From Candidatus Poseidoniaceae archaeon (GTDB lineage: Archaea > Thermoplasmatota > Poseidoniia > Poseidoniales > Poseidoniaceae), in contig CBFIIS010000004.1 in the NCBI GenBank assembly GCA_965662715.1, positions 1 to 58,511 on the forward strand: a stretch of DNA of 58,511 nt. The letters are read 5' to 3'. This document shows positions 35,162-54,717 of the stretch, one piece after another. Every line of letters starts with the position of its first letter. Position 1 is the stretch's first letter. The notes beneath the pieces are model-generated. The model had not been told where the DNA came from. It did no database searches and saw only the letters and a list, made by a program, of their open reading frames with translations. The position numbers were made by a program, and so were the translations under genes.

Positions 35162-38100
35162 TCATCGACTCCTACCGAGGTCGTAAATCGCACGAGATTG
35201 CGGTGCTGACCAACCTGTCTCTTGTAATTGCATCATAATGGTTCGTTCTTTATCTCCGTCATCAATAGCGGTTCGTACCCAATCTGCAGCAGACTCTCGA
35301 TCATCGGCTTGCCAGTCTTCAAAGATACTCAAGTCTACCTTGATTTTTGCCTTTCGAACCTTCGCAGAGCCTTCATCTTCTGCGCTCTCTTCTGTGCTAA
35401 CTTTGCTTGCAACTACCTTTGCAGCCGGCACCTTACTTGGTACAGAGCGGCCTCGAGCAGGCCCAGAAGGAGGCTTTGATTGAGGTGGACCAGCGCGTGG
35501 CCCTCGACCTGGTGGGCCCCCACTGGGTTTGTTTGGCGCAGCACCAGTCGGTCCTCGTGATTTCGAACGTGGAGATGGTGTCGGATTTTGCCTTGATGTG
35601 TTGGTTGTGGTGGTTGAACGAGAGGTATTGAATGACGAAGTAAACGAACCATAGTCGTCGTCATCATCCCAATCGTCGTCATCATCATCATCGTAGTCAA
35701 ATTCATCACTTCGGAACAAACGAACAATCACTGCAAAGAGAACAAGAATACCGATCAAACCGCCAATCCCTGCCAGAATGGCGACACCGGTGCTCATACC
35801 AAACAAGCCTTCCGAAGAATCATCGTCTGTTGACACAGCGATTGGACAACCGTCACCATACCCTCCATCAGCACCTGCTGGTTCATCAGGACAGTTGTCA
35901 TCGTAGTCGGCAACCCCGTCACCATCACCATCGCTTTGTGTTGGGTCGCATCCATCTGAATCTACGTATGTTTTGTACGCCGGTATTGTATCTGGACAAA
36001 GATCAGGGTTGGTACCCGATGCATTGTCACCATAACCATCCCTGTCTCTGTCTTCCCACTGGGTTGGGTTGCCTGCAAGTCCAACAGGTTCAAACAAATC
36101 TCGGTAGCCATCACCATCATCGATGCATCCGAGGAAGTCGATGTACGAAGTGCCGTTTTCAATTGGACAATCGTCGGCATCGTTGCCTTCGATATTATCG
36201 CCATAACCATCGCCGTCTTGGTCGAACCATTGAGTTGGGTCGGTGGGGAAGGCGTCACCTGCTTGGTTTTCATGAAGCCCAGATGTTGAATTGATTGTGT
36301 AAGTGTAGGCTCCTTTGTAGCCATCGCCATCAAGATCTTGGTCAAGTGCAGTTTCATCTGTGCACCCTGTTGAATCAACTGGGAAACCTGTTGGAGTGCT
36401 CGGGCATTGGTCATCAGCATCGCTTACACCATCGTCATCCGTGTCAAGTTGAGCAGTGGAACAACCATTTGCATCGACTTCGGTTTCAAGCGTCAAAGGA
36501 CACAAGTCATCTGGATCGAACACGCCATCACCATCAGAGTCTGTTTCCCGTTGAGCTGCACTGCACCCATTGGCATCGACTTCATCTTGGTATTCGGTCT
36601 GTGGACACTGATCCATGTCATTCATAACACCATCTTGGTCTTCATCGAGTTGATTTTCAGCGCATCCTGCTTGGTTGACCGTGAGCCCTTCGTCGGTGTT
36701 TGGGCACGTGTCCTGTTCATTGGAAACAAAATCTCCATCGTCATCAGTGTCATCAATGAATCGACAACCAATACCGGTTTCGCCATTCGTTGGAACAGTG
36801 CCTTCGAGAACCCCAGCAACTGTGGGGCATTCATCTGCTTGGAAGCCATCTGGGTTGTCGCCGAACCCATCACTATCGAAATCGAGCCATTGGGTTGGTT
36901 CAAGTGGGAAAGCATCGGAGGAATCTTCCCACCCATCGCCATCCAAATCTGGGCAACCGAACACAGGATTGGTTGAGTTCCCCCATACGCCAGGGCAACC
37001 ATCGAGTTCCAACCCCGCCCCGTTATTGGTCAAGTCTTCATCTGAAAGGTCGTAGAATGAAGTCCATCGATCAGGGTAGCCATCGCTATCGTTGTCAACC
37101 GCTGCTGCGATGTTATCTGGGAACATATCTGGATCTGTAGCGCCAAGTGAGTTGTTGTCACCATAACCATCACCATCTGAATCCGTCCACTGTGTCGGGT
37201 CAAGCGGCCACATATCAGCACCCATTGACTCGTTCCATTCAAGGAACGTACCAATGCCAGACGGGTCGGATGAGCCATCATTATCGGTATCTAAGCAACC
37301 ATTACGGTCTCGCCATGAGGCACCCCAATTCCAAGGACATGCGTCGCCAGTCACGGTGTCTGATTCGTTATCGCCCCAGCCATCACCATCGTAATCAGCG
37401 TATTGTGAAGGATTGAATGGGAACAAATCGCCATCGTTACTGTTTGGATCAAGTGGCGTAGCACAACAATCTGGCCCAGAATTGTCGCCATAGCCATCAC
37501 CATCAGAATCTTTGGCTTGCTTCCAATTCAGAATGAACTCATCGCCGTCATAGTAGGAGACGTCGTTGTCCGACCAACCGTCTTGATCGTCATCTCGACA
37601 ACCGAGTCGCCCCAGCCAAGAACTGCCTGAAGCGTCTGTACATCCATCATCAGTGTCAGCATAACCATCGTAATCGTAGTCAGGGCACCCGAAGGTGTAG
37701 AAGGAAGAGGTCGCTGCAACAGAGGTACAACTGTCAGCCATTGGCCCATCAGGGTTGTCACCGTAATTGTCACCGTCACTGTCACTCCATTGATTACCAA
37801 GCGATGGCAAGTCATCAACGAGGTCAAAGACAAGGTCTCTGTCTGTATCTTGGTAGATCCGCAGGACACTCACGTCATCGAGGTCATCGTCCCAAAGTCC
37901 GAGATGGATTGTACCATTGCTGTCAACTTGAGCGTTGGTTTGGCTGCCTACGGTTTTGTAACCAAAAGCCAGCGTTGACCAGGCCGTGCTGTTGTGCATT
38001 GCCGATTCTTTCGCAATTGCATTCCAAGTCAAATCCTTTCCAGAACCAGTGCTTGTCAAGAGGAGGTAGTGATCATCCATCACCACAAGGTCCCAAGCAC

Positions 38101-41100
38101 CATCCAAAGCCGATGTTGGTTGTGTGGCGAACGCCGTCCATTCACTGATGTTTGTGCGGGTGTAGAGCGAGGGCGTGGACATGTCACTTCGAACCGCAAG
38201 GGTTGGTTCACTTCCCCCGACAAGGTCGAGGTTGTACTGGCCAAGGCTCCCTAAGGGTTGATGAAGCGTTGCGCTTGTCCAATTGCTATCAGTGATGTTT
38301 CGTTCGTAAACCGAAAGAGAACCCGTCGAGGTGAGAACTGCAGCGAGGATGGTGCCATCATCTGCAACAGCAAGACGTATGTCAGAGGACAGGTCGGTAA
38401 GACCAGTAATGTTGTGAATTTCGGTGGAGGTTGAATTGATCACCCACAAGGCGAGGTTGGCATCAACGCCGTCATCGTTGATGGCAAGCACCCCTAGGGA
38501 ACCATCGTGCAAGTATGCAGCAGATTGCTGTTGTGAAACCACCGACATGAACTCGCCAGAAGCAAGCGCTGAAGGGTATTCATAGGTCCATGTCGATTCA
38601 CCGTCTGCCTGACGAGCGAGCTGAAGAGAGTCATTTGTTGCATCTCTGTAGACAAGGACTGTTTCATGATTTGTTGATTCGAGGCCTCGAGCCATCACAG
38701 ACACTGGACCATCGAGCACGAGTTGCGAGCGAACGAGCGAAGTGGTCCATCCGGTTGTTGATTCGATGGATGTGAAGAGTTGGTTTGAACCGATGGAGGC
38801 AAAGGCAAGACGTTGTTGTCCAGATGCATCCAATGTCATGCCCAGATGCTCACCAAATTGACCTGTGCTGACAATTGATTGTTCGACGGCTGTATGGCCA
38901 ACCGCTGTTCGAACCGTCAAGCCGTTTTCCCCATCAACTTGGTAGATGACAGGACGGCCAGAGGCTGTGGTGGTGAAGGCATACTTGTTGGATTGATTGC
39001 TGCTTTCAATCACCATGGTGTCGCTCCAAACGCCTGCTGGTGTGGCATCATCGACATGTTCAATGAAATGTGAAGCATTGTTGGCAAACGTCACAAACAT
39101 GCTTGTTTCTCCACGGGCCGAAGTGCTGAGATCAAGTTGTGTGAGGCTGGAGGTGTAAGCGAAGGAGGAAGATTCCCAATCCCTTTCAGAGTGGACCTGG
39201 TAAACGATGGTTGGCGAGGTTGTCGTTGTGTCTCGACAACTGAGGACAATCTCACTTAGACCATCGCCGTCCAAGTCTCCAAGTGTGGCAGCAATAAGGC
39301 CAATGTTGTCGCCAGTTTGACCTGTTGCGAGCAATTCCCAATCTGAGCGAAGTCCGATTGAAGAGCCGAGAATGAGTTCGACTTGACCGCTCTTTCCGGG
39401 GTTGGCTTGCATGATCAGCACGTCATCATAGCCGTCTTCATTGACATCGCCGGCTGGTTCAAAAGTTCGACCAAGCACGGCATTTGCAACACCTGACTCG
39501 AGTGCATAATCGGGCTCTGCTGAAGTGATCCCTCCCGCTGTGCCATAATACGCCCAAATCTTGCCGCTGCGGTATCCGCTCCCGTTGAAGGGTTCTCCAA
39601 ACATGAAATCATCATAGCCATCGGCGTTGACGTCACCAAGGTAATTCAGCGACCAGCCAAGCAGTTTTCCTTGGAGGTTTGACTGAATGATTTGGTCACT
39701 TGTGCCGTTGTAACCCGTGGACTGACCAAAGAAAATTTCAATCGCTGAGTAGCCAAGTGGATTGTCGAAACTGCCCGTATTGGCGACCAGTAAGTCACTC
39801 ATGCCATCCCCATTGAGGTCACCGTTCGCTGCAATGGTTTGACCAAAGCGTGGCCCATCGGTGGACTGAGTGATGTTTCGGACAAAGTCAAGTCCTGATG
39901 CGTTGCCACTGTAAATGATGACTTTTCCTTTGTGTTGAATGGCATTTGTGACCTGTTGAGTATGCCGATATGCCACAGCGACCAAATCGGCCATTGAATC
40001 CCCATTCATGGTTTGTGACGCAGTAAGTGCCCAGCCAAGCGATGTGTTATCCTCGCCAGTCGCATTCCACCACGATATGTTCTCCAAACCTGATGCACTC
40101 CCTAGGTGAACCACAACTTGGCCAGGAGCTCCTGTGAAGTTGCCTTCTGTATCATTCCATCCAGGCGAACCAATGGCAACATCTGCGTAACCATCACCGT
40201 TGAAATCAGCCACAGAAAGTCCATGGCCAAACAAAGCGTCATCCGTTTCACCAGCAAGGGTGACATCAGCAGCCAGTGCAGGGCCGCTTGCTGAACCATA
40301 GTGAATAAGAACACGGCCTCTTTGCAAACCGTCACCATCGTACTCAGGTTCTGCAATCACAAGATCGTCAAATCCATCCCCGTTCAAATCACCCATGTTC
40401 ATCGAACCTTCTTCGATACCCTGAGCACCAATGATGGTTGTCGAGGGTGCAGGATTGATTCGGCCTGTCTCTTGACCTGACAAACTGCGAAGCAACTGCA
40501 GTGTGATGTTGTTGTCCTGGCCGACTGTGGTCACAATTTGTTCCAAATTATTTCCGTCGAGCCCCATCCCGATGTGGGGAACAACATTTGAGTCACGTAG
40601 TAACACTCTGTGGTCATATGTTGTCCCGTCGACGCGAATTAGACGTATCTCTCCTTCATCTGGTACGGCGTAAGCGATATGGACGACTTCATCTGTATCA
40701 ACTGCGAGTTCAATATCTCTGCTCACAGGTCCTGAATCAAGCAATGCATGTGACCAACGTGTGCCACTGAATGTAATCTCCCACAATGAGCCATTGGTGT
40801 CCCTGAACACACCCCATTCGAGATCGTTTTGTCGCAGGCCAAGTCGGAAATCTGTAGGGTTGACGTCTTCCACGATTGTCCGTGTCAACCACGTAGTTTC
40901 GAAGTACACTTGACCAGCATAGGCCACCCTTGCCACCTTGATATCAGGTCCATCAGCATACATCATGTACGGACGAGCATTTTCACCGATCGCCAAGGAG
41001 CAATCGACAAGGTGTGTTTCTGGGGTTGGCGCAACGGTGTCAACAAGGGCATCATTCCAACTTCCATTGGAAGATTGCGTTGCGTAGTGCACTTCTCCTT

Positions 41101-41455
41101 CTGCGGTGGTCCAGCAAAGATTGACATTTTCTCTGCGAGCAAGCACAAGGTCTGGTGTACCCGGTGTTGAGTTTTCAAACAAGGAATCAGATGATTCAAT
41201 CCAAGTGTTGAGGCCAGATTCTTCCCGAACCACACCTTGAACCAAACCATCAAAATCGATTTGAGTTCCAGAGAAATCGTGTCCATATCCACTTGAAAAA
41301 GGCACATGCGCACTTGTTTGCAAAACATCTTGCTGCTCATTTAGTGTCGTTGTGGACCAATCATGAGTTGCCATTGGACTCATTGACTGAATCAAAAATA
41401 GGACCAAAATTGTCAGCGCAATTGTAGGAAATGAGACACTGCGCTTTGCGGCCAT
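35162..41455 (-). CDS. Giant (2097 aa) integrin-like surface protein
   Basis: Single 6.3-kb ORF with an ATG start. Signal (FPTIALTILVLFLIQSMSPMA), beta-rich W-containing repeats, FG-GAP propeller repeats, about 670 aa of TSP3-like repeats, TM GVAILAGIGGLIGILVLFAVIV (nt about 35723-35788), then a 186-aa tail (DEFDYDDDDDDDWDDDDDYG, a Pro/Arg/Lys-rich stretch, and a helical end). Confidence 0.85.
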   Translation of the reverse strand: MAAKRSVSFPTIALTILVLFLIQSMSPMATHDWSTTTLNEQQDVLQTSAHVPFSSGYGHDFSGTQIDFDGLVQGVVREESGLNTWIESSDSLFENSTPGTPDLVLARRENVNLCWTTAEGEVHYATQSSNGSWNDALVDTVAPTPETHLVDCSLAIGENARPYMMYADGPDIKVARVAYAGQVYFETTWLTRTIVEDVNPTDFRLGLRQNDLEWGVFRDTNGSLWEITFSGTRWSHALLDSGPVSRDIELAVDTDEVVHIAYAVPDEGEIRLIRVDGTTYDHRVLLRDSNVVPHIGMGLDGNNLEQIVTTVGQDNNITLQLLRSLSGQETGRINPAPSTTIIGAQGIEEGSMNMGDLNGDGFDDLVIAEPEYDGDGLQRGRVLIHYGSASGPALAADVTLAGETDDALFGHGLSVADFNGDGYADVAIGSPGWNDTEGNFTGAPGQVVVHLGSASGLENISWWNATGEDNTSLGWALTASQTMNGDSMADLVAVAYRHTQQVTNAIQHKGKVIIYSGNASGLDFVRNITQSTDGPRFGQTIAANGDLNGDGMSDLLVANTGSFDNPLGYSAIEIFFGQSTGYNGTSDQIIQSNLQGKLLGWSLNYLGDVNADGYDDFMFGEPFNGSGYRSGKIWAYYGTAGGITSAEPDYALESGVANAVLGRTFEPAGDVNEDGYDDVLIMQANPGKSGQVELILGSSIGLRSDWELLATGQTGDNIGLIAATLGDLDGDGLSEIVLSCRDTTTTSPTIVYQVHSERDWESSSFAYTSSLTQLDLSTSARGETSMFVTFANNASHFIEHVDDATPAGVWSDTMVIESSNQSNKYAFTTTASGRPVIYQVDGENGLTVRTAVGHTAVEQSIVSTGQFGEHLGMTLDASGQQRLAFASIGSNQLFTSIESTTGWTTSLVRSQLVLDGPVSVMARGLESTNHETVLVYRDATNDSLQLARQADGESTWTYEYPSALASGEFMSVVSQQQSAAYLHDGSLGVLAINDDGVDANLALWVINSTSTEIHNITGLTDLSSDIRLAVADDGTILAAVLTSTGSLSVYERNITDSNWTSATLHQPLGSLGQYNLDLVGGSEPTLAVRSDMSTPSLYTRTNISEWTAFATQPTSALDGAWDLVVMDDHYLLLTSTGSGKDLTWNAIAKESAMHNSTAWSTLAFGYKTVGSQTNAQVDSNGTIHLGLWDDDLDDVSVLRIYQDTDRDLVFDLVDDLPSLGNQWSDSDGDNYGDNPDGPMADSCTSVAATSSFYTFGCPDYDYDGYADTDDGCTDASGSSWLGRLGCRDDDQDGWSDNDVSYYDGDEFILNWKQAKDSDGDGYGDNSGPDCCATPLDPNSNDGDLFPFNPSQYADYDGDGWGDNESDTVTGDACPWNWGASWRDRNGCLDTDNDGSSDPSGIGTFLEWNESMGADMWPLDPTQWTDSDGDGYGDNNSLGATDPDMFPDNIAAAVDNDSDGYPDRWTSFYDLSDEDLTNNGAGLELDGCPGVWGNSTNPVFGCPDLDGDGWEDSSDAFPLEPTQWLDFDSDGFGDNPDGFQADECPTVAGVLEGTVPTNGETGIGCRFIDDTDDDGDFVSNEQDTCPNTDEGLTVNQAGCAENQLDEDQDGVMNDMDQCPQTEYQDEVDANGCSAAQRETDSDGDGVFDPDDLCPLTLETEVDANGCSTAQLDTDDDGVSDADDQCPSTPTGFPVDSTGCTDETALDQDLDGDGYKGAYTYTINSTSGLHENQAGDAFPTDPTQWFDQDGDGYGDNIEGNDADDCPIENGTSYIDFLGCIDDGDGYRDLFEPVGLAGNPTQWEDRDRDGYGDNASGTNPDLCPDTIPAYKTYVDSDGCDPTQSDGDGDGVADYDDNCPDEPAGADGGYGDGCPIAVSTDDDSSEGLFGMSTGVAILAGIGGLIGILVLFAVIVRLFRSDEFDYDDDDDDDWDDDDDYGSFTSSFNTSRSTTTTNTSRQNPTPSPRSKSRGPTGAAPNKPSGGPPGRGPRAGPPQSKPPSGPARGRSVPSKVPAAKVVASKVSTEESAEDEGSAKVRKAKIKVDLSIFEDWQADDRESAADWVRTAIDDGDKERTIMMQLQETGWSAPQSRAIYDLGRSR
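35846..37849 (-). repeat. Thrombospondin type-3-like Ca-binding repeat array (approximate bounds)
   Basis: Dozens of Dx[DN]xDGxxDxxD units: QWSDSDGDNYGDN, DSDGDGYGDN, DYDGDGWGDN, DTDNDGSSD, DLDGDGWEDSSD, DFDSDGFGDN, DEDQDGVMNDMDQCP, DSDGDGVFDPDDLCP, DTDDDGVSDADDQCP, DQDGDGYGDN, DGDGDGVADYDDNCP. Confidence 0.8.
39221..40423 (-). repeat. FG-GAP (integrin alpha-type) repeats, at least 6 units (approximate bounds)
   Basis: MGDLNGDGFDDLVIAEP, VADFNGDGYADVAIGSPG, NGDSMADLVAVA, NGDLNGDGMSDLLVAN, LGDVNADGYDDFMFGEP, AGDVNEDGYDDVLI, LGDLDGDGLSEIVLS. Each is spaced by G.V.....G stretches. Confidence 0.75.
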
Positions 41456-41456
41456 A

Positions 41457-41526
41457 GCGTCATGACGCCCCCCCTCCTTGAAAACGCTTGTCGAAAAAAG
41501 TTCATCATGACCCCCGTAGGGGGTCA
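41457..41526. promoter_or_regulatory. Two perfect palindromes sharing a TCATGAC core in the divergent intergenic region between giant gene B and the thiamine pyrophosphokinase gene
   Basis: GCGTCATGACGC (41457-41468, a 12-nt perfect palindrome starting 2 nt from the giant gene ATG) and TGACCCCCGTAGGGGGTCA (41508-41526, 8-bp arms with a 3-nt centre). The TCATGAC cores are 45 bp apart. Confidence 0.35.
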
Positions 41527-41589
41527 GCCTCGCTCTGCGGAAGAACCTTTTTTCAAGACAGAGAAGTTGACAAAAGAGAACCTTGTGCT

Positions 41590-42228
41590 ATGGCCATGAA
41601 CGGGGGCCATTGGCTTATTTGCGCTGATGGAAGGTGGCCAATTCCAAGCGTGCGAAAGCCACTTTTTGAACGGGCTGACGTTGTTGTAGCCTGTGATGGA
41701 GCTTACGATCAATGCCTTGAGCACGGTATCGTGGCACATGTGGTTCTTGGTGACATGGATAGCGTCGAAAACACGGAGGAAACTTCTGGAACACTTTGGG
41801 TGCACAAAACCAGTCAAGAGAAAAGTGATCTGTCAAAGGCGTTTGAATACGCTCAAGAGCATGATGCAGAAATGATTGATGTCATCGGGGTAGAAGGAGG
41901 GGCGCTCGGCCACAAAATCGCTCCTCTTTTCGCCCTCTATGATGCTCCATCGAACACCACACTTCATCTTGACCAAGGACGGGTTCTTTGTGTGAGAAAT
42001 TCATCAACAGCAATTGATTCTATAGAAATTGGAAGTTGCGTTTCACTGTTTGCATTAGGTCCTGCACATGGCGTTTTTTTGAGGGGTTGTCAATGGAGCC
42101 TCAATGGGGAAACGTTACAGCCGGGAACACATGGACTCAACAACAAAGCAACACAATCAACCATTGAATTGACAGTCGAAGAAGGCGCTGTTCTTCTTTG
42201 TATTGAGCCAATCAAAGTGGACCCTTAG
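41590..42228 (+). CDS. Thiamine pyrophosphokinase
   Basis: WLICADG, VVACDGAYD, VLGDMDSV, EKSDLSKAFEYA, DVIGVEGGALGH. The ATG at 41590 is preferred; the track start at 41488 is a TTG lying over intergenic palindromes. The 3' end overlaps the convergent DUF4105 gene by 17 nt. Confidence 0.75.
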   Translation: MAMNGGHWLICADGRWPIPSVRKPLFERADVVVACDGAYDQCLEHGIVAHVVLGDMDSVENTEETSGTLWVHKTSQEKSDLSKAFEYAQEHDAEMIDVIGVEGGALGHKIAPLFALYDAPSNTTLHLDQGRVLCVRNSSTAIDSIEIGSCVSLFALGPAHGVFLRGCQWSLNGETLQPGTHGLNNKATQSTIELTVEEGAVLLCIEPIKVDP

Positions 42229-43078
42229 GCAGGTAGTCCCGAAGCATTGTGGAATAGTCACCTTCGCCATCCCAGCCCAGTGTATGTTCGTCAACTCGTG
42301 CTCGCTCCAATGTTTGTTCAAAACCACCCCAATCTTCGATCAAACCAAGGTTGTAAGCCGCACGCGGCGTGTAACCGGGAAAGAAATTGCGCCAAGTGAA
42401 TGGGACTCGCCCAGGCGTAATCTTGTTCACCATACCAACGATTGAAGTGTTGCAGGTGGTCAAGAACGAATGGTACCACTCGCCTTTGAGCGACAAGGCA
42501 TTTGCTTTGTTGGTCAATGCGTGAAGAAGTGCTTTCTCCTTGCCAGGTGGCGTGATTCCACGGAACATGTAATCCTTGTTCCCTCTCGCATTTGTTCTCA
42601 GGCCCAAAAGATCCCGTTCATAGCCGACGAGGAGATACAATTCGTAATGGCGCCAAAAACCCGGCCACGGGTGGTATCGCTGCCCCTTACGTCGTCGCGC
42701 TTCAAAGGAAAACGACAGGCAGGTCCCATCATTGAATTCGAAGGTCAAGAACGTGTGGGCCATACCGTGAACCTTGTGAAAGTGATCAACAACGAACCAT
42801 ACGTCTTTGATTTCGTCTGCCCTTACATCGAGCGTATCATCCCATGATTCATCTCGGTCACGGGTCGTTCTCCAGAAAAAATCTCTCACATTTTTGAACC
42901 GAATCGCATCACCATCGATCTCAGCTGACGTTGTTCGTTCGCAATCAGAGTTCCAATCGTCTTCCAATTGAGGTACTCGAGGGCGGACGCGTACCATCCA
43001 AATGAGGATTGAAAGGCCTAGAAAAGCGATAATGGTCGTTGCGGCATATCCTAAAACAGTCAACCAACTGAGCGCCAT
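42212..43078 (-). CDS. DUF4105-family membrane protein (N-terminal TM plus exoplasmic domain)
   Basis: The ATG at 43078 sits 4 nt after the upstream stop. TM LTVLGYAATTIIAFLGLSILIW. Family-like motifs: GMAHTFLTFEF (compare GHTFLRF), YERDLLGL, WYHSFLTTCNTSIV (compare YYFFxxNC[ST]). Confidence 0.7.
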   Translation of the reverse strand: MALSWLTVLGYAATTIIAFLGLSILIWMVRVRPRVPQLEDDWNSDCERTTSAEIDGDAIRFKNVRDFFWRTTRDRDESWDDTLDVRADEIKDVWFVVDHFHKVHGMAHTFLTFEFNDGTCLSFSFEARRRKGQRYHPWPGFWRHYELYLLVGYERDLLGLRTNARGNKDYMFRGITPPGKEKALLHALTNKANALSLKGEWYHSFLTTCNTSIVGMVNKITPGRVPFTWRNFFPGYTPRAAYNLGLIEDWGGFEQTLERARVDEHTLGWDGEGDYSTMLRDYLPKGPL

Positions 43079-43082
43079 CGTT

Positions 43083-44402
43083 TCACCACTTATGCCAAAT
43101 GCGTAGGTCTTGGTCCCACCAATCCATTGAACCGTCAGGTTGTTGTCGCCAGAGGGTTCCACTGTCATCTGTTGTTGTTGGCATCCCTTCTGGATCTGGA
43201 GAACCGTCTGGGAGAATTGTTGGGGTTGGACCTAATGACCTAATGCCAGTCATCTCCTCTTCATCTTTGACCCGTACAAGCATGAAAAACACAATGATGG
43301 CAACGATGAAGCCCAAAGCGCCAATCGAGTACCACCCTACGGACTCAGTTTCCGTATCTTCACCAAAGGAACGGCTTGGAAGGGTTTCTGCTTCCTCTTT
43401 GGTTAAATCTTCTCCGGGTTGCCTGATCAAATTAAGACCGTGAACGGTTCGAATCTGCTCATTGTTAATCACTTCAAGACTGATGAGGTGGACTCCTGCT
43501 GGAAGAACTGAACAATCGTAAGAATTGCTGTCAGTGCCGTCCAATTGTTGGCCTTGAACCGACCAGATTTTGTCAAAGGTTGAGAAATCCACACCCGCCA
43601 TATTTGGAACCATAGTGACCATACAAGGCGTATCTGTCGTGTTTCCGTCACCACGTACAGTCAGAGAGAATGCAGGGGCAGGCCTGTTGTGAATCGTGAT
43701 GTTAAGCCAAGATTCGGTGGTTTGGCCCAAATCGTTTCGATACGCTTCCTTCAGCACGTATTCACCAGCGGGCCAATGTGAACAATTGAGTGAAGTTTGA
43801 TTGTCAAGCACGGTAAAAGGTGCTCCGGAGAAGGTTCGAACCCCTGCAGCGGCATAGCGAGGTCCTGTTTCATCCGCAAAGATTCGGTCTATGGTGCAGG
43901 CATCTCCAGTCTCAATCCATGCAGGGGCTTCAAGGTCCAGAATAATTTGAGGCGTCTTCAATGCAGGCCGAAGAACATAGGTTGGCAATTGAATCGTCGT
44001 GATGGTTTCGCCATCTTGATTGACAATCTCGAGTCGAAGAGCGTGTTCACCTTGGGCCCATGCATCATAGATGATGCTGGCGTTTGATTGACCACTAAAT
44101 GACATTGTGCGGCTGTCATGAACTTCTCTGTCTTTGTGAACACCATACAAACGCAGTTCGATGTTGGTGTATTCATTGGTCGTGTTCATGATCACTACGA
44201 CACGAATGGCATCAGCATCACCGTCTTGGTTGAGGTCGAGGGTGTCGTTTCGTAGAGCAATCAAAGCCAATCCTTCAGCTTCGAGTGCTTCATCAGATGA
44301 GCTCGGTTCCGCCGATGCAGGTCCAGTCATGCCGATGGGTGCCATCATGGCCAAGCAAAGAATGCTCAGCATGAGAAGGCTGTTTCGATGTGCTTCAATC
44401 AT
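43083..44402 (-). CDS. Secreted Ig-like-fold surface protein (439 aa) with a C-terminal TM anchor and a Trp-rich cytoplasmic tail
   Basis: Signal peptide LLMLSILCLAMMAPIGMTGPASA, a beta-rich body with NxS/T sequons, TM WYSIGALGFIVAIIVFFMLV, and tail ...PDGSMDWWDQDLRIWHKW. Its start overlaps the upstream stop (ATGATTGA). Confidence 0.7.
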   Translation of the reverse strand: MIEAHRNSLLMLSILCLAMMAPIGMTGPASAEPSSSDEALEAEGLALIALRNDTLDLNQDGDADAIRVVVIMNTTNEYTNIELRLYGVHKDREVHDSRTMSFSGQSNASIIYDAWAQGEHALRLEIVNQDGETITTIQLPTYVLRPALKTPQIILDLEAPAWIETGDACTIDRIFADETGPRYAAAGVRTFSGAPFTVLDNQTSLNCSHWPAGEYVLKEAYRNDLGQTTESWLNITIHNRPAPAFSLTVRGDGNTTDTPCMVTMVPNMAGVDFSTFDKIWSVQGQQLDGTDSNSYDCSVLPAGVHLISLEVINNEQIRTVHGLNLIRQPGEDLTKEEAETLPSRSFGEDTETESVGWYSIGALGFIVAIIVFFMLVRVKDEEEMTGIRSLGPTPTILPDGSPDPEGMPTTTDDSGTLWRQQPDGSMDWWDQDLRIWHKW

Positions 44403-46938
44403 CTGCCTTCACCTCAGTAGGTTGTGGTGGGGGCATTGGGAGAGGAGGTAAATTCTCGAGTGGTATCATACCGGGTTGAGGTTGACCCATTTCTTCGAGG
44501 GTGCGGGATTGTTTTTCTTCGAAAAGAGCCTCTTCAAGGTCGTGGTCATCACGGCCCGATTTGACAATGAGGGCTGCGCTTGCACCCAATATGAAGCCTA
44601 AACCGATGACAAGGTAAGTGAGCCAAGATGCTTCAGGGTTTTCGCCAAGGATCGCAACGGCGGCGGCAAACTCTCCGTAGTCATCTGACCATCCATCATT
44701 GTTCGAATCAACACAACCCTGAACGTCTCGCTTCGAGGTGCCGGCTTGTTCAGGGCAATCGTCTCTGAATGCACCAAGCGGGACATCCCCATAGCCATCG
44801 CCATCAAGGTCGCGCCACTGGAGAGCTTCTGTTGGGAACGCATCGGCTGCTCCGGCAGGGTGAGCTTCCCACGAAGCGGTTGGGTCTGACCAACCGTCAC
44901 CGTCTGTGTCGCGGCATCCAAGTCGATCAAGCATGGACGTACCACGTACTTCAGGACAAGCATCGCCTTGGTTACCATCTTCACGGTCACCGTAGCCATC
45001 ACCATCTGAATCGCGCCATTGTGTGGGCTCATGAATGAAAGCATCGCCGAGGTCTGACCAACCATCACCATCGGTGTCAGCACAACCCCATCGGTCGCCA
45101 CCGGCAGAGGGGCCAACTGAGGTGCCTGCCTGATCTGGACACACATCGGCGGTTGTACCGCGAGGGTTATCCCCACGACCATCACCATCGATGTCATGCC
45201 ATTGAGTTGGATCCATCGGCCAAGCATCGCCACGACCGCCAGGGCTTGCAAGCCACGCGCTTGTTGGGTCAGACCAGCCATCTTGGTCACTGTCTGGACA
45301 ACCCCAGCGATCGAATGTCGAGGAGCCTTCTGTCGTTTTACAGCCATCTCCACGGTAAGCATCCCTCTGAGTTTGACCATCGAAGTATACCATATTGTCA
45401 CCATAGCCATCGTCGTCGGTGTCGTACCATTGGCTTTGGTCGTCTGGGAAAGCATCAGCAAAGCCTGCTGGATGAGCAATCCAATCGTTTGTTGGGTTGG
45501 AAAAACCATCCTTGTCAGTGTCTCGGCAACCTAAGCGGTCAACGTATGAAATCCAACCAGACTCCACTTCCTCTGGTGAGGAAAAGACACAAACATCGCC
45601 TTCGTAACCATCTAAATTATCGCCATAACCATCACCATCTGTGTCGCGATATTGCGAGGGAATGAATGGGAAATCATCGACTTGGGAAGCGCCATAGGTT
45701 TGGTTGTCGCCCCAACCATCTTCGTCAGTATCGAGCCATTGGGTCGGGTTGTCTGGGAAATCATCGACAAGGTTTGCCCCTTCGCTTTGGTTGTCGCCCC
45801 AACCATCAAAGTCACGGTCACGCCATTGGGATTCTTCAAACGGGAAAGCGTCAGAGCCGTTGACAACCGTCCAGTTGACGTCACCGTCAGAAAACGAATC
45901 GCCATCACTATCGGTGCAACCGTAGCGATCTCCGAATGAATTTCCTGTAATGAAGGGACAAGCATCAGGTGTTGTCGCATTGAAGATGTAGGACCCAATA
46001 CCCCATCCAAGTCGGGAGGTGTTCCAACTCTCATCGGCCCAATTATCCCCATAGCCGTCTGCATCTGTATCGTTCCATTGCGATGCATCGATTGGGAATG
46101 CATCACCCATTCCAACCGGATGAGCGTACCAAGGGGTTACGCCGTCAAGGCCACCAGGGTCGTCGTCTGAATAGCCATCACCATCTGAATCAAGGCAGCC
46201 AAATCGGTCGAGGGAGGAATAACCACGGCGGAATGGGCAGTGATCACCTTGGTAGCCATCGAGGTTGTCGCCATAATTGTCATTGTCACTGTCAAGCCAT
46301 TGTGTTGGCTCTTCAAAGAAAGCATCTGCACCGTTTTGTGCCAACCATCCAGCCTCAGGATCAGACCAGCCATCACCGTCGGTATCCGGGCATCCCTTTC
46401 GATCGTTCGAAGAGGTGCCAACAACATCGTCACAATCATCATCAATGTCGACAAATCCATCTTCATCGCTGTCTCGGTTGGTCTTGTCAATGGATGGCGT
46501 GATCGTGTAATCAAACCCATCATTGCACCAAGAATCGTCGGCTTTGACCTTGAAATAAACGAAACTTTGGGCGCCGACAGTCGTCGAGAGTGTTTTTGAT
46601 GCTGCGTTGTCATCAACATAAGAATCGACAATGGTGCTGCCTTGGGCGTTAAGCAACGAAACTCGCCCTTGCCAGCCATCACCCGGGCACCACCATGCAG
46701 GTCCATTCATGGTACCAGAAAATGAAATTTGAACGATGTCGCCTTTCTTTGCCTCAATCTTCCAAAAATCGGTTTGATCTCGGCCGGCATCGCAATCTGG
46801 ATCGCAGACGTAACCGCTTGACGTGACGCCGTCTGTCAAAGGCGATGCGCTTTGAATATCATTGTCTGCAACAACGTGTGGAACAAAACTGAGCATCAGC
46901 GCGGCGAGCGACAAGGCCAGCACACGCTTCGCGAGCAT
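44395..46938 (-). CDS. TSP3-repeat Ca-binding surface protein (847 aa) with an N-terminal jelly-roll-like domain and a C-terminal TM anchor
   Basis: Signal MLAKRVLALSLAALMLSFVPHVVA from the ATG at 46938. N-domain (DFWKIEAKKGDIVQISF) resembles pre-peptidase C-terminal / collagenase-type domains. Roughly 600 aa of DxDxDG repeats follow. TM at nt about 44563-44628, then a Pro-rich 55-aa tail. Confidence 0.8.
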   Translation of the reverse strand: MLAKRVLALSLAALMLSFVPHVVADNDIQSASPLTDGVTSSGYVCDPDCDAGRDQTDFWKIEAKKGDIVQISFSGTMNGPAWWCPGDGWQGRVSLLNAQGSTIVDSYVDDNAASKTLSTTVGAQSFVYFKVKADDSWCNDGFDYTITPSIDKTNRDSDEDGFVDIDDDCDDVVGTSSNDRKGCPDTDGDGWSDPEAGWLAQNGADAFFEEPTQWLDSDNDNYGDNLDGYQGDHCPFRRGYSSLDRFGCLDSDGDGYSDDDPGGLDGVTPWYAHPVGMGDAFPIDASQWNDTDADGYGDNWADESWNTSRLGWGIGSYIFNATTPDACPFITGNSFGDRYGCTDSDGDSFSDGDVNWTVVNGSDAFPFEESQWRDRDFDGWGDNQSEGANLVDDFPDNPTQWLDTDEDGWGDNQTYGASQVDDFPFIPSQYRDTDGDGYGDNLDGYEGDVCVFSSPEEVESGWISYVDRLGCRDTDKDGFSNPTNDWIAHPAGFADAFPDDQSQWYDTDDDGYGDNMVYFDGQTQRDAYRGDGCKTTEGSSTFDRWGCPDSDQDGWSDPTSAWLASPGGRGDAWPMDPTQWHDIDGDGRGDNPRGTTADVCPDQAGTSVGPSAGGDRWGCADTDGDGWSDLGDAFIHEPTQWRDSDGDGYGDREDGNQGDACPEVRGTSMLDRLGCRDTDGDGWSDPTASWEAHPAGAADAFPTEALQWRDLDGDGYGDVPLGAFRDDCPEQAGTSKRDVQGCVDSNNDGWSDDYGEFAAAVAILGENPEASWLTYLVIGLGFILGASAALIVKSGRDDHDLEEALFEEKQSRTLEEMGQPQPGMIPLENLPPLPMPPPQPTEVKADD
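44686..46482 (-). repeat. Thrombospondin type-3-like bipartite repeat array (approximate bounds)
   Basis: Alternating units: DAFP.(D/E)xxQWxDxDGDGYGDN ... D.CP...G.S...R.GC.DxDGDGWSD. Examples: DTDGDGWSDPEAGW, DSDNDNYGDN, DSDGDGYSDDD, DTDADGYGDN, DSDGDSFSDGD, DRDFDGWGDN, DTDEDGWGDN, DTDGDGYGDN, DTDKDGFSNP. Confidence 0.8.
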
Positions 46939-47037
46939 GGTTGCCCAAGAGGCGGTGTGCCTATGAACACTACCCGAGTGACATGACACCCTACGGGTGT
47001 CGTTCAAAGAAATCAAACATCTGAATCAATGAGGGAT

Positions 47038-48303
47038 TCACCGAGGCTTCAACGAAGTATAAATCGCCTCATAGGCCTCTGCATTGTGCTCATAGGTGTA
47101 GGTTGAAAGAACCCGAGCTCTACCTCGTTGTGCCTGCTCGGTTCGTGCCTCAGGATCGGAAAGGGAGCGGCACACTGCTTTTGCTAAATCGCTCGAATCA
47201 CCAGTCGTGAACAATTCGCCAACGGTTTCGTCGATCATCTCGGTGAGTGGGGCTTGATTGACAGTCACGACAGGCGTGCCGCTCGCAAGCGCTTCGAGCG
47301 GAATCAAACCTTGCCCTTCGTAGTAGGATGGATAGACCACCAAATCTGCGGAACGGAAGTGCTGTGCGAGTTCCTCAAACGGCATACCCGGTTGAATAAA
47401 CACGGCATGATCAACACCGAGTTTCTTGGCTTGTTTTCGCAATGTTTTGGCCATATGGCCACGACCAACAATGCACAGACGGGCCCCCGGATGTTGCTCA
47501 AGAATTTCCGGCATCGCCCGCAAAAGAGTTCGATGACCTTTCCGGGCGACGAGTCGGCCAACAGCGAGGAGAAGAGGCGTGGTTTTGGAAGGTCGGCCAC
47601 ATAAGGCATCTTCATCCGCAGCATCGTATTTTTTCCTCAATGCTTCATGGGCAAGTTGTTCCTCTTCGTCGTCAGTATTGCTCGGTCGGAAGACGAGGTG
47701 GTCGACACCGTAGAGAATGGTTTCACAGCGCCAATCTTCAGGAGGCTTGTACCACCGTTGAAACTCTTGTTTTGTTGATTCGCTGATGGCGACACTCACA
47801 GAGGATGCTTCGACACCAGCTTGCTCGTATCTCGCATACCAGCCACCGGTCGTAAGAATGGCCAAATCGTTAGGGTTCTTCCACGTCGCAGCTTCCCGGT
47901 GTTTAGCAGCTAACTTCATGCCATTTCGCTCACCGATCCAACTTCCATTCAATGCCGATACTACTGGTGCGATGTTTGCTTCAACCCATTGGAATTCTTT
48001 GCGTTTCCAACTGACAAGGGGAAGAAGGGTGTGAACCACATCCACGGGGACACTCGCATGCAACTGCTTGAGCGCCCGTAGAGCATGTTTTCCGTATGAC
48101 CTCGTGAAGGCCATAGGTGCTTTCAGCCAAGGCACTTCGATGACGGAGACACCTTGTTGGGGTGGCGCTCGTCCTTTGTGCGCTCTTGTGATGATGGTGA
48201 TGCTGTGGCCACGTGCTGCCAAATGCCCAGCCAAGTGGAACACCACCGAGCCAATCCCTCCCCATCGAGGAGGGTATTCACCAGACACCATGGCGATGTG
48301 CAT
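47038..48303 (-). CDS. Glycosyltransferase family 4 (GT-B, retaining)
   Basis: MHIAMVSGEYPPRWGGIGSVVFHLAGHLAARGH (N-terminal Gly-rich loop) and the EX7E region PSYYEGQGLIPLEALASGTPVV. The ATG at 48303 is preferred. Confidence 0.85.
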   Translation of the reverse strand: MHIAMVSGEYPPRWGGIGSVVFHLAGHLAARGHSITIITRAHKGRAPPQQGVSVIEVPWLKAPMAFTRSYGKHALRALKQLHASVPVDVVHTLLPLVSWKRKEFQWVEANIAPVVSALNGSWIGERNGMKLAAKHREAATWKNPNDLAILTTGGWYARYEQAGVEASSVSVAISESTKQEFQRWYKPPEDWRCETILYGVDHLVFRPSNTDDEEEQLAHEALRKKYDAADEDALCGRPSKTTPLLLAVGRLVARKGHRTLLRAMPEILEQHPGARLCIVGRGHMAKTLRKQAKKLGVDHAVFIQPGMPFEELAQHFRSADLVVYPSYYEGQGLIPLEALASGTPVVTVNQAPLTEMIDETVGELFTTGDSSDLAKAVCRSLSDPEARTEQAQRGRARVLSTYTYEHNAEAYEAIYTSLKPR

Positions 48304-48408
48304 AACGGACCGAGAACGCTCTTTCGTTTCAATGTCACCGAATTCATGGGCGTAGGATTCAAGTTCTCGCTCCAATGCTTTGAAGGGGGTTGTCTTTGTC
48401 GGGGATTC

Positions 48409-49182
48409 ATGGGCGAAAAACTCCCTGTCACTGTGACGGTGATTCTTCCAACTCGAAATGAAGAGGAAGCATTGGGTCCAACCATCGATGCAATACCTCG
48501 TGGTTGGTGTAAAAAACTCGAGATCATGATCGTCGATGGCAATTCAAGCGACCGCACCCGTGAAATCGCTCTGAAGAAGAAAATCAGAGTTCACCTTGAA
48601 GATCGAAAGGGCTACGGTCGAGCCTATCGAACTGGTTTTGATGTGGCGTCAAACGACATCATCGTCACCATGGATGCAGACTGCACCTACCCTGCGGAAC
48701 TTGTTCCAACATTGGTGAAGCGGTTGTTGGATGATGATCTTGATTTCATCACATGCGATCGACTTTCACTTGCAGAAGAGGGCTCAATGCCAGGGATTCA
48801 CGGCTTTGGAAACTGGGCACTCTCGTTCACAGCTCGACTTTTGTTCGGCTATGGGATCAAAGATTCACAATCGGGCATGTGGGTGTTCAGAAAATCTATT
48901 TTTGACAATGAAGAAATGCGCCCAACGAACGACGGAATGCCTCTTTCTGAAGAGATGAAAATTCTTGCACGCCGAGTGCTTGGAAAGAAGAAAGCGGTTG
49001 AGATCTCAGTACCTTACCGACCTCGTGTTGGTGAGGCAGAAATCCACACATGGGGCGATGGTTGGAAGAATTTCAAATTTCTTTTTGCCCGTCGTGTTGG
49101 CCTCCACCGAACCCGAACCCCGTGGGGTGCAAGACCATCGAACCCAGATTCAACCAACGGCGATTTACCAGAACAAGCCTGA
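48409..49182 (+). CDS. Glycosyltransferase family 2 (dolichyl/polyprenyl-phosphate glycosyltransferase-like)
   Basis: VTVILPTRNEEEAL, IMIVDGNSSDRT, GYGRAYRTGF, VTMDADCTYP (DxD). The ATG at 48409 is preferred because the upstream extension overlaps the divergent GT4 gene. Confidence 0.85.
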   Translation: MGEKLPVTVTVILPTRNEEEALGPTIDAIPRGWCKKLEIMIVDGNSSDRTREIALKKKIRVHLEDRKGYGRAYRTGFDVASNDIIVTMDADCTYPAELVPTLVKRLLDDDLDFITCDRLSLAEEGSMPGIHGFGNWALSFTARLLFGYGIKDSQSGMWVFRKSIFDNEEMRPTNDGMPLSEEMKILARRVLGKKKAVEISVPYRPRVGEAEIHTWGDGWKNFKFLFARRVGLHRTRTPWGARPSNPDSTNGDLPEQA

Positions 49183-49191
49183 GTTGATTCA

Positions 49192-49827
49192 ATGGAATTC
49201 TGGCACCAGCGCTGGTTCAACAATCAAATTGGCTTCCACCGTCTTGTTGCAAACGACTTGCTGATCAAGCACTGGCCATCGCTTGAGTGTCAACCGGGAG
49301 CCAATGTCTTGGTGCCGTTGTGTGGAAAAACTCTGGACATGCACTGGCTCAATGAACAAGGTCACAAGGTAACTGGTATCGAACTCGTGGAAAAAGCCGT
49401 TCGTTCTTTTTTTGATGATGCACAACTAACGCCGCATGTCGAGTCTCAAGGCGAGCACACCGTCTTCACCACTGAGCACATCACCATTGTTCAAGGGGAT
49501 GTATTCACCCTACCTGAAACAATGGCCAATTGCCAAGCTTGGTATGACCGAGCAGCGATGGTGGCGTTGCCATCGGAGGTAAGGGCGACATATGTCGATC
49601 AAATCTATTCACTCTGCTCACCGGGTGCTGTCGGCTTGATGATTACCTTCGCTTACCCACAAGAACAAATGCAGGGGCCACCATTTTCTTTGCCTGATGA
49701 AGAGGTGTTCGAAGTCTTTTCCGAACGATTCGAGGTTGAACTCTTGGAAAGCATCAACCTCGAGGATGAAAAGGACCGGGGCCTCTCTCAAATCACATCA
49801 TCGATCTTCAAAATCAAGCGAACCTGA
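49192..49827 (+). CDS. Thiopurine S-methyltransferase-family SAM methyltransferase
   Basis: FWHQRWFNNQIGFH, VLVPLCGKTLDMHWLNEQGHKVTGIELVEKAV, WYDRAAMVALP. These are hallmark TPMT/Tmt motifs. Confidence 0.85.
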   Translation: MEFWHQRWFNNQIGFHRLVANDLLIKHWPSLECQPGANVLVPLCGKTLDMHWLNEQGHKVTGIELVEKAVRSFFDDAQLTPHVESQGEHTVFTTEHITIVQGDVFTLPETMANCQAWYDRAAMVALPSEVRATYVDQIYSLCSPGAVGLMITFAYPQEQMQGPPFSLPDEEVFEVFSERFEVELLESINLEDEKDRGLSQITSSIFKIKRT

Positions 49828-49828
49828 T

Positions 49829-52800
49829 TCAGACGTTGTCCCAATCAAGGTCAACACCAGTCAGTGGTTTTGCTTCCTCAGGTTCACCTTTGATCTCGGC
49901 TTCGACTTCTGTCGCTGCTTCAGTGACGCCTCCTTCCAATGAAATTGGGGTTGCCGAATCCAATGGTTCAACAGGTTTCACTGACCTGAATGCATCCCAT
50001 GATTCAATCATATCCAATTCTGCAAACCGTGCTCTGCGACGCGATGCAATCATGGCAACAGCAACAAGTAACACCACGAAAGCGCCAATAGCGCCGACAA
50101 GCACCATGGTTCGACCATCGCTTGGAGGATCGGAAATGTCAAGGGTTATACTGATAACATCAATGTTGGCATTTTCACCTTCCCCATCGGTAGCGATGAC
50201 CTTCATGTTTGGCCGGCCTGCACCATCAGGCAGCAATTCCAAATTGCCTTCCCACACACCATCACCGTCTGCGTCTGTGAGGTTCAATTGCCACTCCTGC
50301 TGGTCATACTTCACAGTCACACGGACGTCTTTTGTCGTTCCATCGGCGTCTGTCATAGTAACCGAGACCGCCAATGTGTTCAATTCGCCTGCAATCAAGG
50401 TCGTTGGAGTATAGACAAGGTTTGACAATCGGGGGAGGCTGGATTGAACAGTGACGTTCGCAAACACCTCATCTTCGCCCCCTCGGCTGTCTCGAATATA
50501 AAGCGAAATCATGTGTTCGCCGGGCATAAGACTGACCTCATCCATGCTGCGCGTTGACAAGATGGAATAGGTACCATTCATTGCCCAATGGCGCCATTCA
50601 CGGGCGACCATATCATCATCAGCATCTGTCGAATCTTCACTGAGCATAAGTACACCACCTGCTTCAATCGAATCTCGATTCGACGGCGTGATCATGGTTG
50701 CAATTGGATCTGATTGACCCACAGTAATAGTGAGGAATGTGCTCGAAGACAAACCTGTTTCATCTACCAAGGTCACCTCCATCGTGTGGGTTCCTGCCGG
50801 AAGATAACTGATGTGAGTCTCACCAGGATTGACGGCATCAAGGAGGGGCTCGCTCAACAAATCACTGCGCACAGTGAGTGTGAAGTTGTCGTCATCGTAA
50901 TCTACAGATTGGACAGCATTCCAGAAGATAGGGTCTGAGGAACGGAAAATCTCCTCGTCCAACGGGGAGACCAAATCGAGGACGGGAGGTGATGTAGTCA
51001 CTTCAACGGTTCGAGAAACAAGAACTGGTTCATGGATACCATCATCCAAACTCAACGTGATGGTGTGGGTCCCTGCCGACAGTCTTCCATCAAAAATCAG
51101 GTAATCCTCGCCCTCTGGTGTGAGTCTGCCATCAAGGTCGCTTGACCATACCACAACGAGGTATTCTGAGCCCGCAAAGGGCTGGGACTCTGCACAATGC
51201 CACGAGCCGTTGACTGGGAATGTGAAACACGCAGCATCATAGTCGCCTGAGCCGTTTGCGGAGAACCATATTGTTTCTGACGAGGTGTAGACTTGGGTAT
51301 CAAGAGGTGTCTCAATGATGCTCTTTGGCATTGAATTATCAACTGAGATCAGCGTCGAGTTCACCTTTGTGGAATTGATATGCTCAGGACGATCATCAAC
51401 GACACGCATCTCAATGCTGTGAACACCACGTGAAAGATGACCGGTCCACATCGTGGCACCCGATTCGTTTGACCAAGCAAGTTGTCCATCGAGGCTGGAC
51501 CACCATTCAATTTCGAGAACATCACCTTCAGGATCGACGGTTGCCGAGCCGTCAAAGGTCACTTCGTCTTCACTCGCATTGCCGCTTCTCAGAACCTCAA
51601 ACACTGGCTCTGGTACTTCATTGAACAGTTCAACGGGAATCGCAAATGAAGAGGGTGAATTGAGGCCATCGGATGCATAGATCGTCAAATCAAACACCGA
51701 TGGAACAGGTTCAGCCATTGTCAAATTCATCCAAAGTTCACTGGGGCACGAGGTTGCTGGGTCACTCGGTCCAAGGTAGGAACGTTCCAACCAGCACGTC
51801 ATTGGGTCACCCTCGGGATCAAAGGTTTGCGACAGATCAATTCGAACACTTTCTGTTCGAGCAATGATGAGTTCAGACCAAGGAGAGAGAGCAGGTTGGA
51901 CATCGATCACCAAAACGGGGGCTTGATTGACCAATTCGATGGTGCGTTGGAGCGAAGTGCAATGATCATCATCGCAGACCTCAAGGGTGATGATGTGTAT
52001 TCCATCGGAGAGCGAACACGACCATGTATCATTGGTGTTGACAGTGAAAGGAACCCCACCACTTGGTCCGTTTGGTTCTTGCCAAGTACCGGTGCACGAG
52101 TCGACAAGATCGCCATCAAGAGAACTGGACCAAGTCCACAAAAGCGGGTCGTTATCAAGGTCCCAAGAATCACTCGCATTGAAGAAGATTGCACCCTGTG
52201 AAGGGAAGACGTCGCCATCAAATGGCGTATCCCAGATAGCAAACGGTGGTTGGTTTTGCAGCGGCAAGACACAATTGATGAAACGATCTTGGTCCAAGGT
52301 GATGCTTGTGCTGTTTGAGACGCTGTCATAGCCACATGACACATCGATAATGTTGTGGCTTGATGCGCCTGTACTTGTCCATTGTTGGCCAATAAAATTA
52401 GGCAATTCGAGATAGCCAAGGTCATTTGTCAAAGATTCAAGTGAGGGCTCAAAAGCATCGAAACTTGCGTTGACATAGGCGTTTGGAATGCCGTTGTTGA
52501 CGGTGTTGACCACCCATACCGTGATGTCCCAAGCGACATCAATTGTAGCACCGGAAGCAATGGTTGCTTTGGTTAAATCAACACCGCTTGGGCGGTGGAG
52601 ATGGAGGGATGATGTGCTGTCCAATTGAAGGGCTTGTGCACCGGTGGCATCGGTCAATGAGGACCAATTCACATGGCTGTTCTGGAACACAATGGAACCT
52701 GTACAATCTGCAGTGATGGTGTTGCCGTACCCTGTCAAAGCGGTGTGATCAGTCAATTCAAGGCACGACGTGTCACCTGAAATCTGGGTTCTGCTCAAGC

Positions 52801-54643: not shown

Positions 54644-54717
54644 ACCTTGAGGCGCTCGCGAACGCACTTCAAGGGTTCGGCTTGATGCATGCCATGAGCA
54701 TCAGGAGAATCCATGTC

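Follow-up and report, generated by a model that had tools for sequence, protein, structure and literature searches.

In the archaeal order Poseidoniales (marine group II, MGII), a short single-pass membrane protein that we call LnbN combines the Lnb_N domain (formerly DUF4105) with an invariant His-Glu-Cys set, in the same order and nearly the same spacing as in the Bacteroides acyltransferase Lnb. We studied it in a 58,511-nucleotide (nt) stretch of a Poseidoniaceae (MGIIa) genome (contig CBFIIS010000004.1, positions 1 to 58,511; hereafter the window), where the 288-amino-acid (aa) LnbN is encoded on the minus strand at 42212-43078. Two genes precede it on that strand, both open reading frames (ORFs) without a Pfam family: Drich847 (44395-46938), encoding an 847-aa Asp-rich repeat protein, and p439 (43083-44402), encoding a 439-aa protein. 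We put at about even the chance that LnbN is an ancestral envelope acyl-transfer enzyme, upstream of which this adhesin pair was inserted and with which the pair is probably co-transcribed. A sequence-only reading of the window had proposed a dedicated module for the maturation, anchoring or modification of surface adhesins. New here are the connection of a whole archaeal order to the Lnb triad, an architecture that is short and distinct, an adhesin pair that is specific to Poseidoniaceae and probably co-operonic, and the relevance to MGII lipids. MGII archaea are among the most abundant in the surface ocean and are uncultured.

The assignment of LnbN to PF13387 (Lnb_N) is firm (E=3.5e-19; 69.5 bits against a cut-off of 22.2; profile positions 3-173 of 175) and bears out the DUF4105-like label of the sequence-only reading. 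Public annotations of metagenome-assembled genomes (MAGs) already carry the label "DUF4105 domain-containing protein" for these proteins, so the domain call itself is not new. That reading had also, correctly, connected the domain with lipoprotein N-acylation: Bacteroides Lnb (BT_4364 / BF9343_0945; Armbruster et al. 2024) is a lipoprotein N-acyltransferase of 398 aa with five transmembrane (TM) helices (PMC11573676). The periplasmic DUF4105 domain of Lnb resembles NlpC/P60 enzymes and has a putative triad of His49, Asn66 and Cys148, of which Cys148 is essential (PMC11573676). No NCBIfam model matches LnbN, even at E<=10.

We built an alignment of the window protein and 34 representatives (25-57% identity). 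Across all 35 sequences, H108, E126 and C209 are invariant, as are W42, R65, R128, D156, R161 and Y202, and His108-Glu126-Cys209 forms a putative catalytic triad. Glu lies 18 residues and Cys 101 residues after the His, compared to 17 and 99 in Lnb, and in both proteins the domain follows an N-terminal TM helix. The AlphaFold2 (AF2) model of LnbN (predicted local distance difference test, pLDDT, 96.3) has a long N-terminal helix at residues 2-31 and then a compact alpha/beta domain, with no further TM helix. LnbN thus differs from Lnb in having one TM helix rather than five flanking the periplasmic domain, in using Glu in place of Asn, and in belonging to an archaeon without an outer membrane; its activity is a prediction. 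A longer LnbN beginning at the upstream in-frame ATG at 43168 was considered and rejected, most homologues being called at 285-300 aa and beginning at the TM helix.

What LnbN might do is suggested by its relatives. DUF4105 forms a clade in a circularly permuted, lipid-acting branch, with the toxin Tox-Act1 as its sister; both Tox-Act1 and TseH are active as phospholipases, and the LRAT/PLAAT proteins are acyltransferases (PMC12994826). The toxins share a conserved His and Cys with LnbN and act on ester-linked acyl chains of phosphatidylglycerol and phosphatidylethanolamine at the periplasmic face. They are secreted, however, and sit with immunity proteins in conflict loci, whereas LnbN would reside in the membrane and is encoded in a synteny block of housekeeping genes. 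LRAT/PLAAT (HRASLS) proteins and CLN5 share the permuted NlpC/P60-type Cys-His arrangement, but they are eukaryotic and have no detectable sequence similarity to LnbN. Members of these families move acyl chains via a thioester intermediate. From the chemistry of every characterized relative, together with MGII gene content, we infer that LnbN performs acyl transfer on ester-linked chains. In this reading, LnbN is a permuted NlpC/P60 (DUF4105/Lnb_N) enzyme anchored by one membrane pass. Its Cys209, assisted by His108 and Glu126, would accept an ester-linked acyl chain from a membrane lipid as a thioester, and the enzyme would then pass the chain on to an acceptor or set it free. The most likely site of action would be the outer face of the cytoplasmic membrane.

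Such an enzyme would need acyl donors. According to PMC6962369, glycerol-1-phosphate dehydrogenase is missing from MGII genomes, and genes for fatty-acid synthesis and PlsC-like genes are present; these genes make acyl donors for LnbN plausible. The conservation of LnbN, a member of an acyl-ester-dependent enzyme family, across the order bears on the question of MGII membrane lipids and offers a concrete gene for probing acyl esters in those membranes. A more specific proposal, that Poseidoniales Lnb_N proteins at the cell surface move ester-linked acyl chains from one membrane lipid to another or onto surface proteins, among them possibly the adhesin pair, is a long shot. If it were true, MGII membranes would contain acyl-ester lipids, and the order would have a route for acylating proteins or lipids unlike that of AliA and AliB.

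LnbN is widespread in the order. We found 380 homologues, the best 120 of which are all 60-86% identical, with source names pointing to Poseidoniales. A genome scan, started from an alignment of close LnbN relatives and returning only relatives of at least 60% identity, located the gene in at least 172 species-representative genomes. The best 80 of the 172 are Poseidoniales, Poseidoniaceae or unclassified euryarchaeal MAGs, with one probably mis-binned contig as the exception, and the original MG-II assembly, CM001443.1, encodes a relative at 85% identity. The odd contig (L020, CAWVYB010000296.1) is 1.7 kb long, is filed under an "uncultured Flavobacteriales bacterium" MAG and encodes p439 and LnbN at 83-86% identity; it is probably a mis-binned archaeal contig.

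Beyond the order, LnbN is approximately 30-37% identical to the closest proteins of its short subfamily outside Poseidoniales. Members of the subfamily have approximately 270-300 aa and one N-terminal TM helix. Clustering at 50% leaves 1,949 representatives of them, a profile search recovered more than 4,000 proteins, and bacterial homologues with the short architecture number in the thousands. The few named members come from Rhodothermales, Thermoanaerobaculia and bacteria of the candidate phyla radiation (CPR). The Lnb family is thereby extended to a large, short, single-pass subfamily in archaea, CPR and other bacteria. Among the CPR bacteria, the architecture is present in Paceibacterota and Peribacteraceae (P0445, P0491 and P0496). 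To our knowledge, CPR bacteria lack de novo lipid synthesis, and their possession of the protein hints at a lipid-scavenging or remodelling role for the short subfamily.

Gene neighborhoods bear on the evolutionary history of the locus. Among 87 Poseidoniaceae loci, 86 have p439 immediately upstream of LnbN, preceded in turn by Drich847 wherever the contig reaches, a conserved order in line with the sequence-only reading. The remaining locus (L080, 5723-9870) is a natural test of the independence of LnbN from the pair: LnbN is in place, Drich847 and p439 are absent, and LnbN comes after a 514-aa gene and an SRPBCC-epimerase-DUF1731 gene, with approximately 300-340 nt between the latter and LnbN (whose start codon is uncertain). 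Downstream, every Poseidoniales locus examined has thiamine pyrophosphokinase (TPK; in the window 41590-42228, plus strand; NCBIfam TIGR01378, 102 bits against a cut-off of 76.4) in convergent orientation. The 3' ends of LnbN and TPK overlap by 17 nt (42212-42228) in the window, and relatives are alike, with 24 nt in L001 for example.

A more distant lineage (L090, 10001-11789; L091; L092) has LnbN at 43% identity next to the same TPK, FG-GAP and M29-like genes, and these shared neighbors mark it as probably another Poseidoniales family. Its order is a 493-aa protein of unknown function, SRPBCC-epimerase-DUF1731, a 955-aa MMPL/RND transporter, two LnbN genes, TPK and FG-GAP, with no adhesin pair. 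The tandem paralogues in L090 are 42% identical to each other, and both match Lnb_N and keep the triad; the MMPL/RND neighborhood suggests a lipid-export context. Because LnbN sits just upstream of convergent TPK in both lineages that share this synteny, we regard it as ancestral at the position and read it as having a general envelope or lipid function. In the simplest history, the adhesin pair was inserted directly upstream of LnbN in Poseidoniaceae. LnbN would then not have been built for the adhesins, though in Poseidoniaceae it would be co-expressed with them.

The junctions within the trio are tight. The Drich847 stop and the p439 start overlap by 8 nt (ATGATTGA at 44395-44402), an overlap found unchanged in 43 loci. 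The p439 TGA (43085-43083) is separated by aacg from the LnbN ATG at 43078, and across loci the p439/LnbN junction ranges from -7 to +22 nt in all but one of those with a placeable ATG start. The sequence-only reading described these two junctions accurately, and the tight coupling that it saw is real. It is not unusual, however: 7 of the 19 same-strand neighbor pairs in the window have gaps of at most 10 nt. The conserved block also runs on through convergent TPK, a 2,100-aa FG-GAP protein, an EF-hand protein and an M29-like peptidase, and includes an M32 peptidase. Because unrelated housekeeping genes belong to the block as well, conserved order by itself says little about a functional unit and is partly plain synteny.

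Upstream of Drich847 we identified a promoter-like element. The TATA-like sequence TTCATAGG (46960-46967, minus strand) lies 22-29 nt before the Drich847 ATG, and its core, TT[CG]ATA[GA], is the sole block conserved across all lineages in upstream alignments. In relatives with diverged flanks, the approximately 45 nt that precede the ATG hardly differ, and an in-frame TAG within this block in L013 indicates that the block is non-coding. The same stop codon falls inside the putative extension of a Drich847 that would begin at the upstream TTG at 47016, and we rejected that start. We infer that the element is an archaeal promoter giving a leaderless or near-leaderless Drich847-p439-LnbN transcript, so that the trio would now probably be transcribed together from this single site at the Drich847 start.

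Farther upstream, a GT4 glycosyltransferase (47038-48303, minus strand; Pfam Glycos_transf_1, E=4.6e-37) ends 99 nt before the Drich847 ATG at 46938. The sequence-only reading placed it correctly, at about 100 bp on the same strand with a GT2 gene divergent from it, and counted it as a member of the cluster. We think that it probably lies outside, as a separate transcription unit, because Drich847 has its own conserved promoter-like element and because GT4 is not upstream of Drich847 in 16 loci of the Poseidonia group. There, the 514-aa gene and the SRPBCC-epimerase-DUF1731 gene replace GT2/GT4. Between the GT4 stop and the TATA-like box is a perfect palindrome, gACACCC-GTA-GGGTGTc (46985-47001, minus strand), whose arms persist between diverging flanks in L009, L013, L018, L001 (with the loop TAC) and L022. 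The palindrome may serve as a hairpin terminating GT4 or as a site bound by a regulator.

The two proteins encoded upstream of LnbN appear to form a Poseidoniaceae-specific surface module, with a calcium-binding repeat protein and a three-immunoglobulin (Ig)-domain protein as its probable parts. Drich847 contains 14 DxDxDGxxD calcium-type motifs between residues 156 and 718. Its sole PDB sequence match is to the TSP3-like repeats of an OmpA-family protein (5wtl, E=7e-4), in which the corresponding units have the form DxDxDGxxD-C-P. The motifs and this match support the TSP3-repeat label given by the sequence-only reading, but no Pfam family, not even TSP_3 at E<=10, matches the whole protein or a 151-aa repeat segment. 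The N-terminal domain is weakly PPC-like (E=0.023, below the cut-off); of the PPC and PKD families that had been put forward for checking, PPC therefore stands only as this weak hit, and PKD gave no significant match. We predict a type I membrane protein with a signal peptide, a weakly PPC-like N-domain, calcium-type repeats, a TM helix and a 55-aa tail.

For p439, the AF2 model shows three beta-sandwich domains (residues 45-144, 152-238 and 245-328), a TM helix (357-377) and a small C-terminal beta-meander. Foldseek returned 314 PDB matches at E<=1e-3, headed by the Sap S-layer protein, SiiE and fibronectin type III arrays; these and the MpIBP adhesin match with E values of approximately 1e-8 to 1e-6 and support the earlier description of p439 as an Ig-like anchored protein. 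No Pfam family is found, and no match to TSP_3, BIg or PKD is significant. The 317 homologues all have high identity, and the few that are named come from Poseidoniaceae or euryarchaeal MAGs. The model and sequence predict a type I membrane protein with a signal peptide, three Ig-like domains, a juxtamembrane linker, a TM helix and a 62-aa Trp-rich cytoplasmic tail. The linker, PSRSFG.DT.T.SVGW, is highly conserved though predicted to be disordered.

Both adhesins thus have the topology that the sequence-only reading ascribed to them: a signal-like N-terminus, a single C-terminal TM helix and a tail. The p439 tail (43083-43270; ...GVLWRQHPDGxxDWWDxxLRIWHKW) has, like the ectodomain, many invariant positions in a 30-sequence alignment, and its invariant Trp-rich end forms the beta-meander (pLDDT 80-88). 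The Drich847 tail (44395-44560) carries a MIPLxxLPP(L/I/V)P motif conserved across loci, and the TM helices of the two proteins share an IG(A)LGFI-like small-residue motif. The tails may bind each other. We considered a WW-like p439 tail binding PPLP and rejected it, since Pfam searches of both cytoplasmic tails found nothing, including no WW match; the idea is also weakened by loci that lack LPPLP in the Drich847 tail and have an unchanged p439 tail.

The pair can be compared with known surface systems. The p439 beta-sandwich array matches the BIg-type domains of the giant calcium-binding bacterial adhesins SiiE and MpIBP, and the Drich847 repeats match those of 5wtl. Unlike these proteins, Drich847 and p439 are predicted type I membrane proteins with conserved cytoplasmic tails, not substrates of a type I secretion system or outer-membrane proteins. 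With the PGF-CTERM substrates of archaeosortase ArtA they share an archaeal cell surface and a C-terminal TM segment. The adhesins, however, lack a PGF motif, have conserved tails of 55-62 aa beyond the TM helix rather than a short basic stub, and have no archaeosortase gene in their cluster. In a lineage known for giant surface proteins, a pair with such tails is a candidate for outside-in linkage.

In the module proposed by the sequence-only reading, LnbN would acylate, process or anchor Drich847, p439 or both at their juxtamembrane segments. The trio keeps its order and overlapping junctions at loci spanning 47-98% p439 identity, is served by one conserved promoter-like element and encodes three membrane-anchored products, and the p439 linker, predicted to be disordered, is highly conserved. 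But neither adhesin has a conserved Cys or a lipobox, L080 and the distant lineage with its tandem LnbN and MMPL genes dispense with the pair, and the synteny reaches TPK and the M29 and M32 peptidases in a genome where tight spacing is common. The contexts of two bacterial family members (L093 and L094) likewise contain unrelated genes, no adhesins and no consistent functional clue. We therefore consider a dedicated adhesin module rather unlikely. A full-text literature search on DUF4105 gave 7 papers, with no archaeal subject among the 4 titles listed, in line with the earlier remark that no archaeal system coupling such a protein to adhesins is known.

The remaining alternatives concern chemistry rather than partners. 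LnbN could be a true counterpart of Lnb that N-acylates the lipobox lipoproteins of Poseidoniales as Lnb does those of Bacteroides, in keeping with the shared Pfam family and triad spacing; lipoproteins do occur in archaea, and AliA and AliB, the enzymes of their biogenesis, were found only recently (PMC12462473). Yet the two architectures differ, NCBIfam offers no match, and the short subfamily occurs in CPR bacteria and in varied contexts. Lnb itself has been described as phylogenetically confined to Bacteroides species (PMC11573676), and in the 58.5-kb window (approximately 30 genes) 0 ORFs of at least 150 aa match the G+LPP lipobox pattern. We judge this version very improbable. Alternatively, LnbN could be a cysteine peptidase: a protease or amidase with a papain fold whose substrates are surface proteins, which it would shed or trim, and not lipids. 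Many members of the papain-like NlpC/P60 superfamily are peptidases (PMC10318531), and a Cys-His pair is compatible with proteolysis. DUF4105, however, belongs to the permuted branch, in which the characterized members (Lnb, Tox-Act1, TseH and LRAT) act on acyl chains, and Pfam detects no peptidase family in LnbN. We give the peptidase the smallest chance of all.

Several points weigh against our preferred account, in which LnbN is an ancestral acyl-transfer enzyme that acts at the outer face of the cytoplasmic membrane. Acyl transfer by the short subfamily is proposed by analogy, and acyl esters in MGII membranes are putative. In addition, the order Drich847-p439-LnbN is kept in 86 of the 87 Poseidoniaceae loci, and with such retention a lineage-specific functional link to the adhesins is possible. 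A Foldseek search of the PDB with the LnbN model gave 0 matches at E<=1e-3, and a profile search of PDB sequences with the LnbN alignment gave nothing relevant; with no significant PDB match, the fold is assigned from the Pfam match and from the literature. Leaving GFP aside, Foldseek ranks CLN5 (6r99; probability 0.44, TM-score 0.34) and Aichivirus 2A (approximately 0.3) highest, both weak matches, and TseH is outside the top 50. We take CLN5 and Aichivirus 2A to be lipid-acting proteins of the permuted NlpC/P60 type.

The topology of LnbN raises a further difficulty. Archaeal LnbN N-termini have no Lys or Arg, and a conserved VRVRPR segment follows the TM helix, so that a strict positive-inside rule would make the domain cytoplasmic; in bacterial homologues, the N-termini are rich in Lys and Arg. 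A sequon, N210-T-S, directly follows Cys209 (residues 208-210, 42449-42457) and is also present in a six-sequence Poseidoniaceae consensus. If the domain is extracellular, N210 would have to stay unglycosylated. The sequon and the Lys/Arg-poor N-terminus make the topology ambiguous, and the outside orientation in our account is drawn from homology.

The rest of the window is a compact stretch of chromosome, approximately 92% coding, with housekeeping genes (aconitase, a DEAD helicase, M32 and M29 peptidases and TPK) and several giant surface proteins. An Rfam search of 41400-49300 returned sR14 alone, at chance level (E=0.5). The GT2 gene (48409-49182, plus strand; Pfam Glycos_transf_2, E=3.1e-25), given here for context only, resembles AglJ and dolichyl-phosphate-hexose transferases; against the NCBIfam AglJ equivalog TIGR04182 it scores 100 bits, under the cut-off of 325, and it is AglJ-like only. 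It is followed after 9 nt by a thiopurine S-methyltransferase gene (49192-49827, plus strand) despite their unrelated annotations. Among the loci compared, the methyltransferase is detected in closer relatives only, L001 having a PPK2 gene upstream of GT2 instead, and is a variable insertion within an otherwise syntenic block.

The giant surface proteins are all encoded on the minus strand (1080-7760, 35162-41455 and 49829-54667) and comprise two FG-GAP proteins of 2,226 and 2,097 aa and a beta-helix protein of 1,612 aa. The 2,097-aa and 1,612-aa proteins each have a C-terminal TM helix followed by a cytoplasmic tail. The 2,097-aa protein also has Asp repeats like those of Drich847, a poly-Asp run and a long Pro-rich tail.

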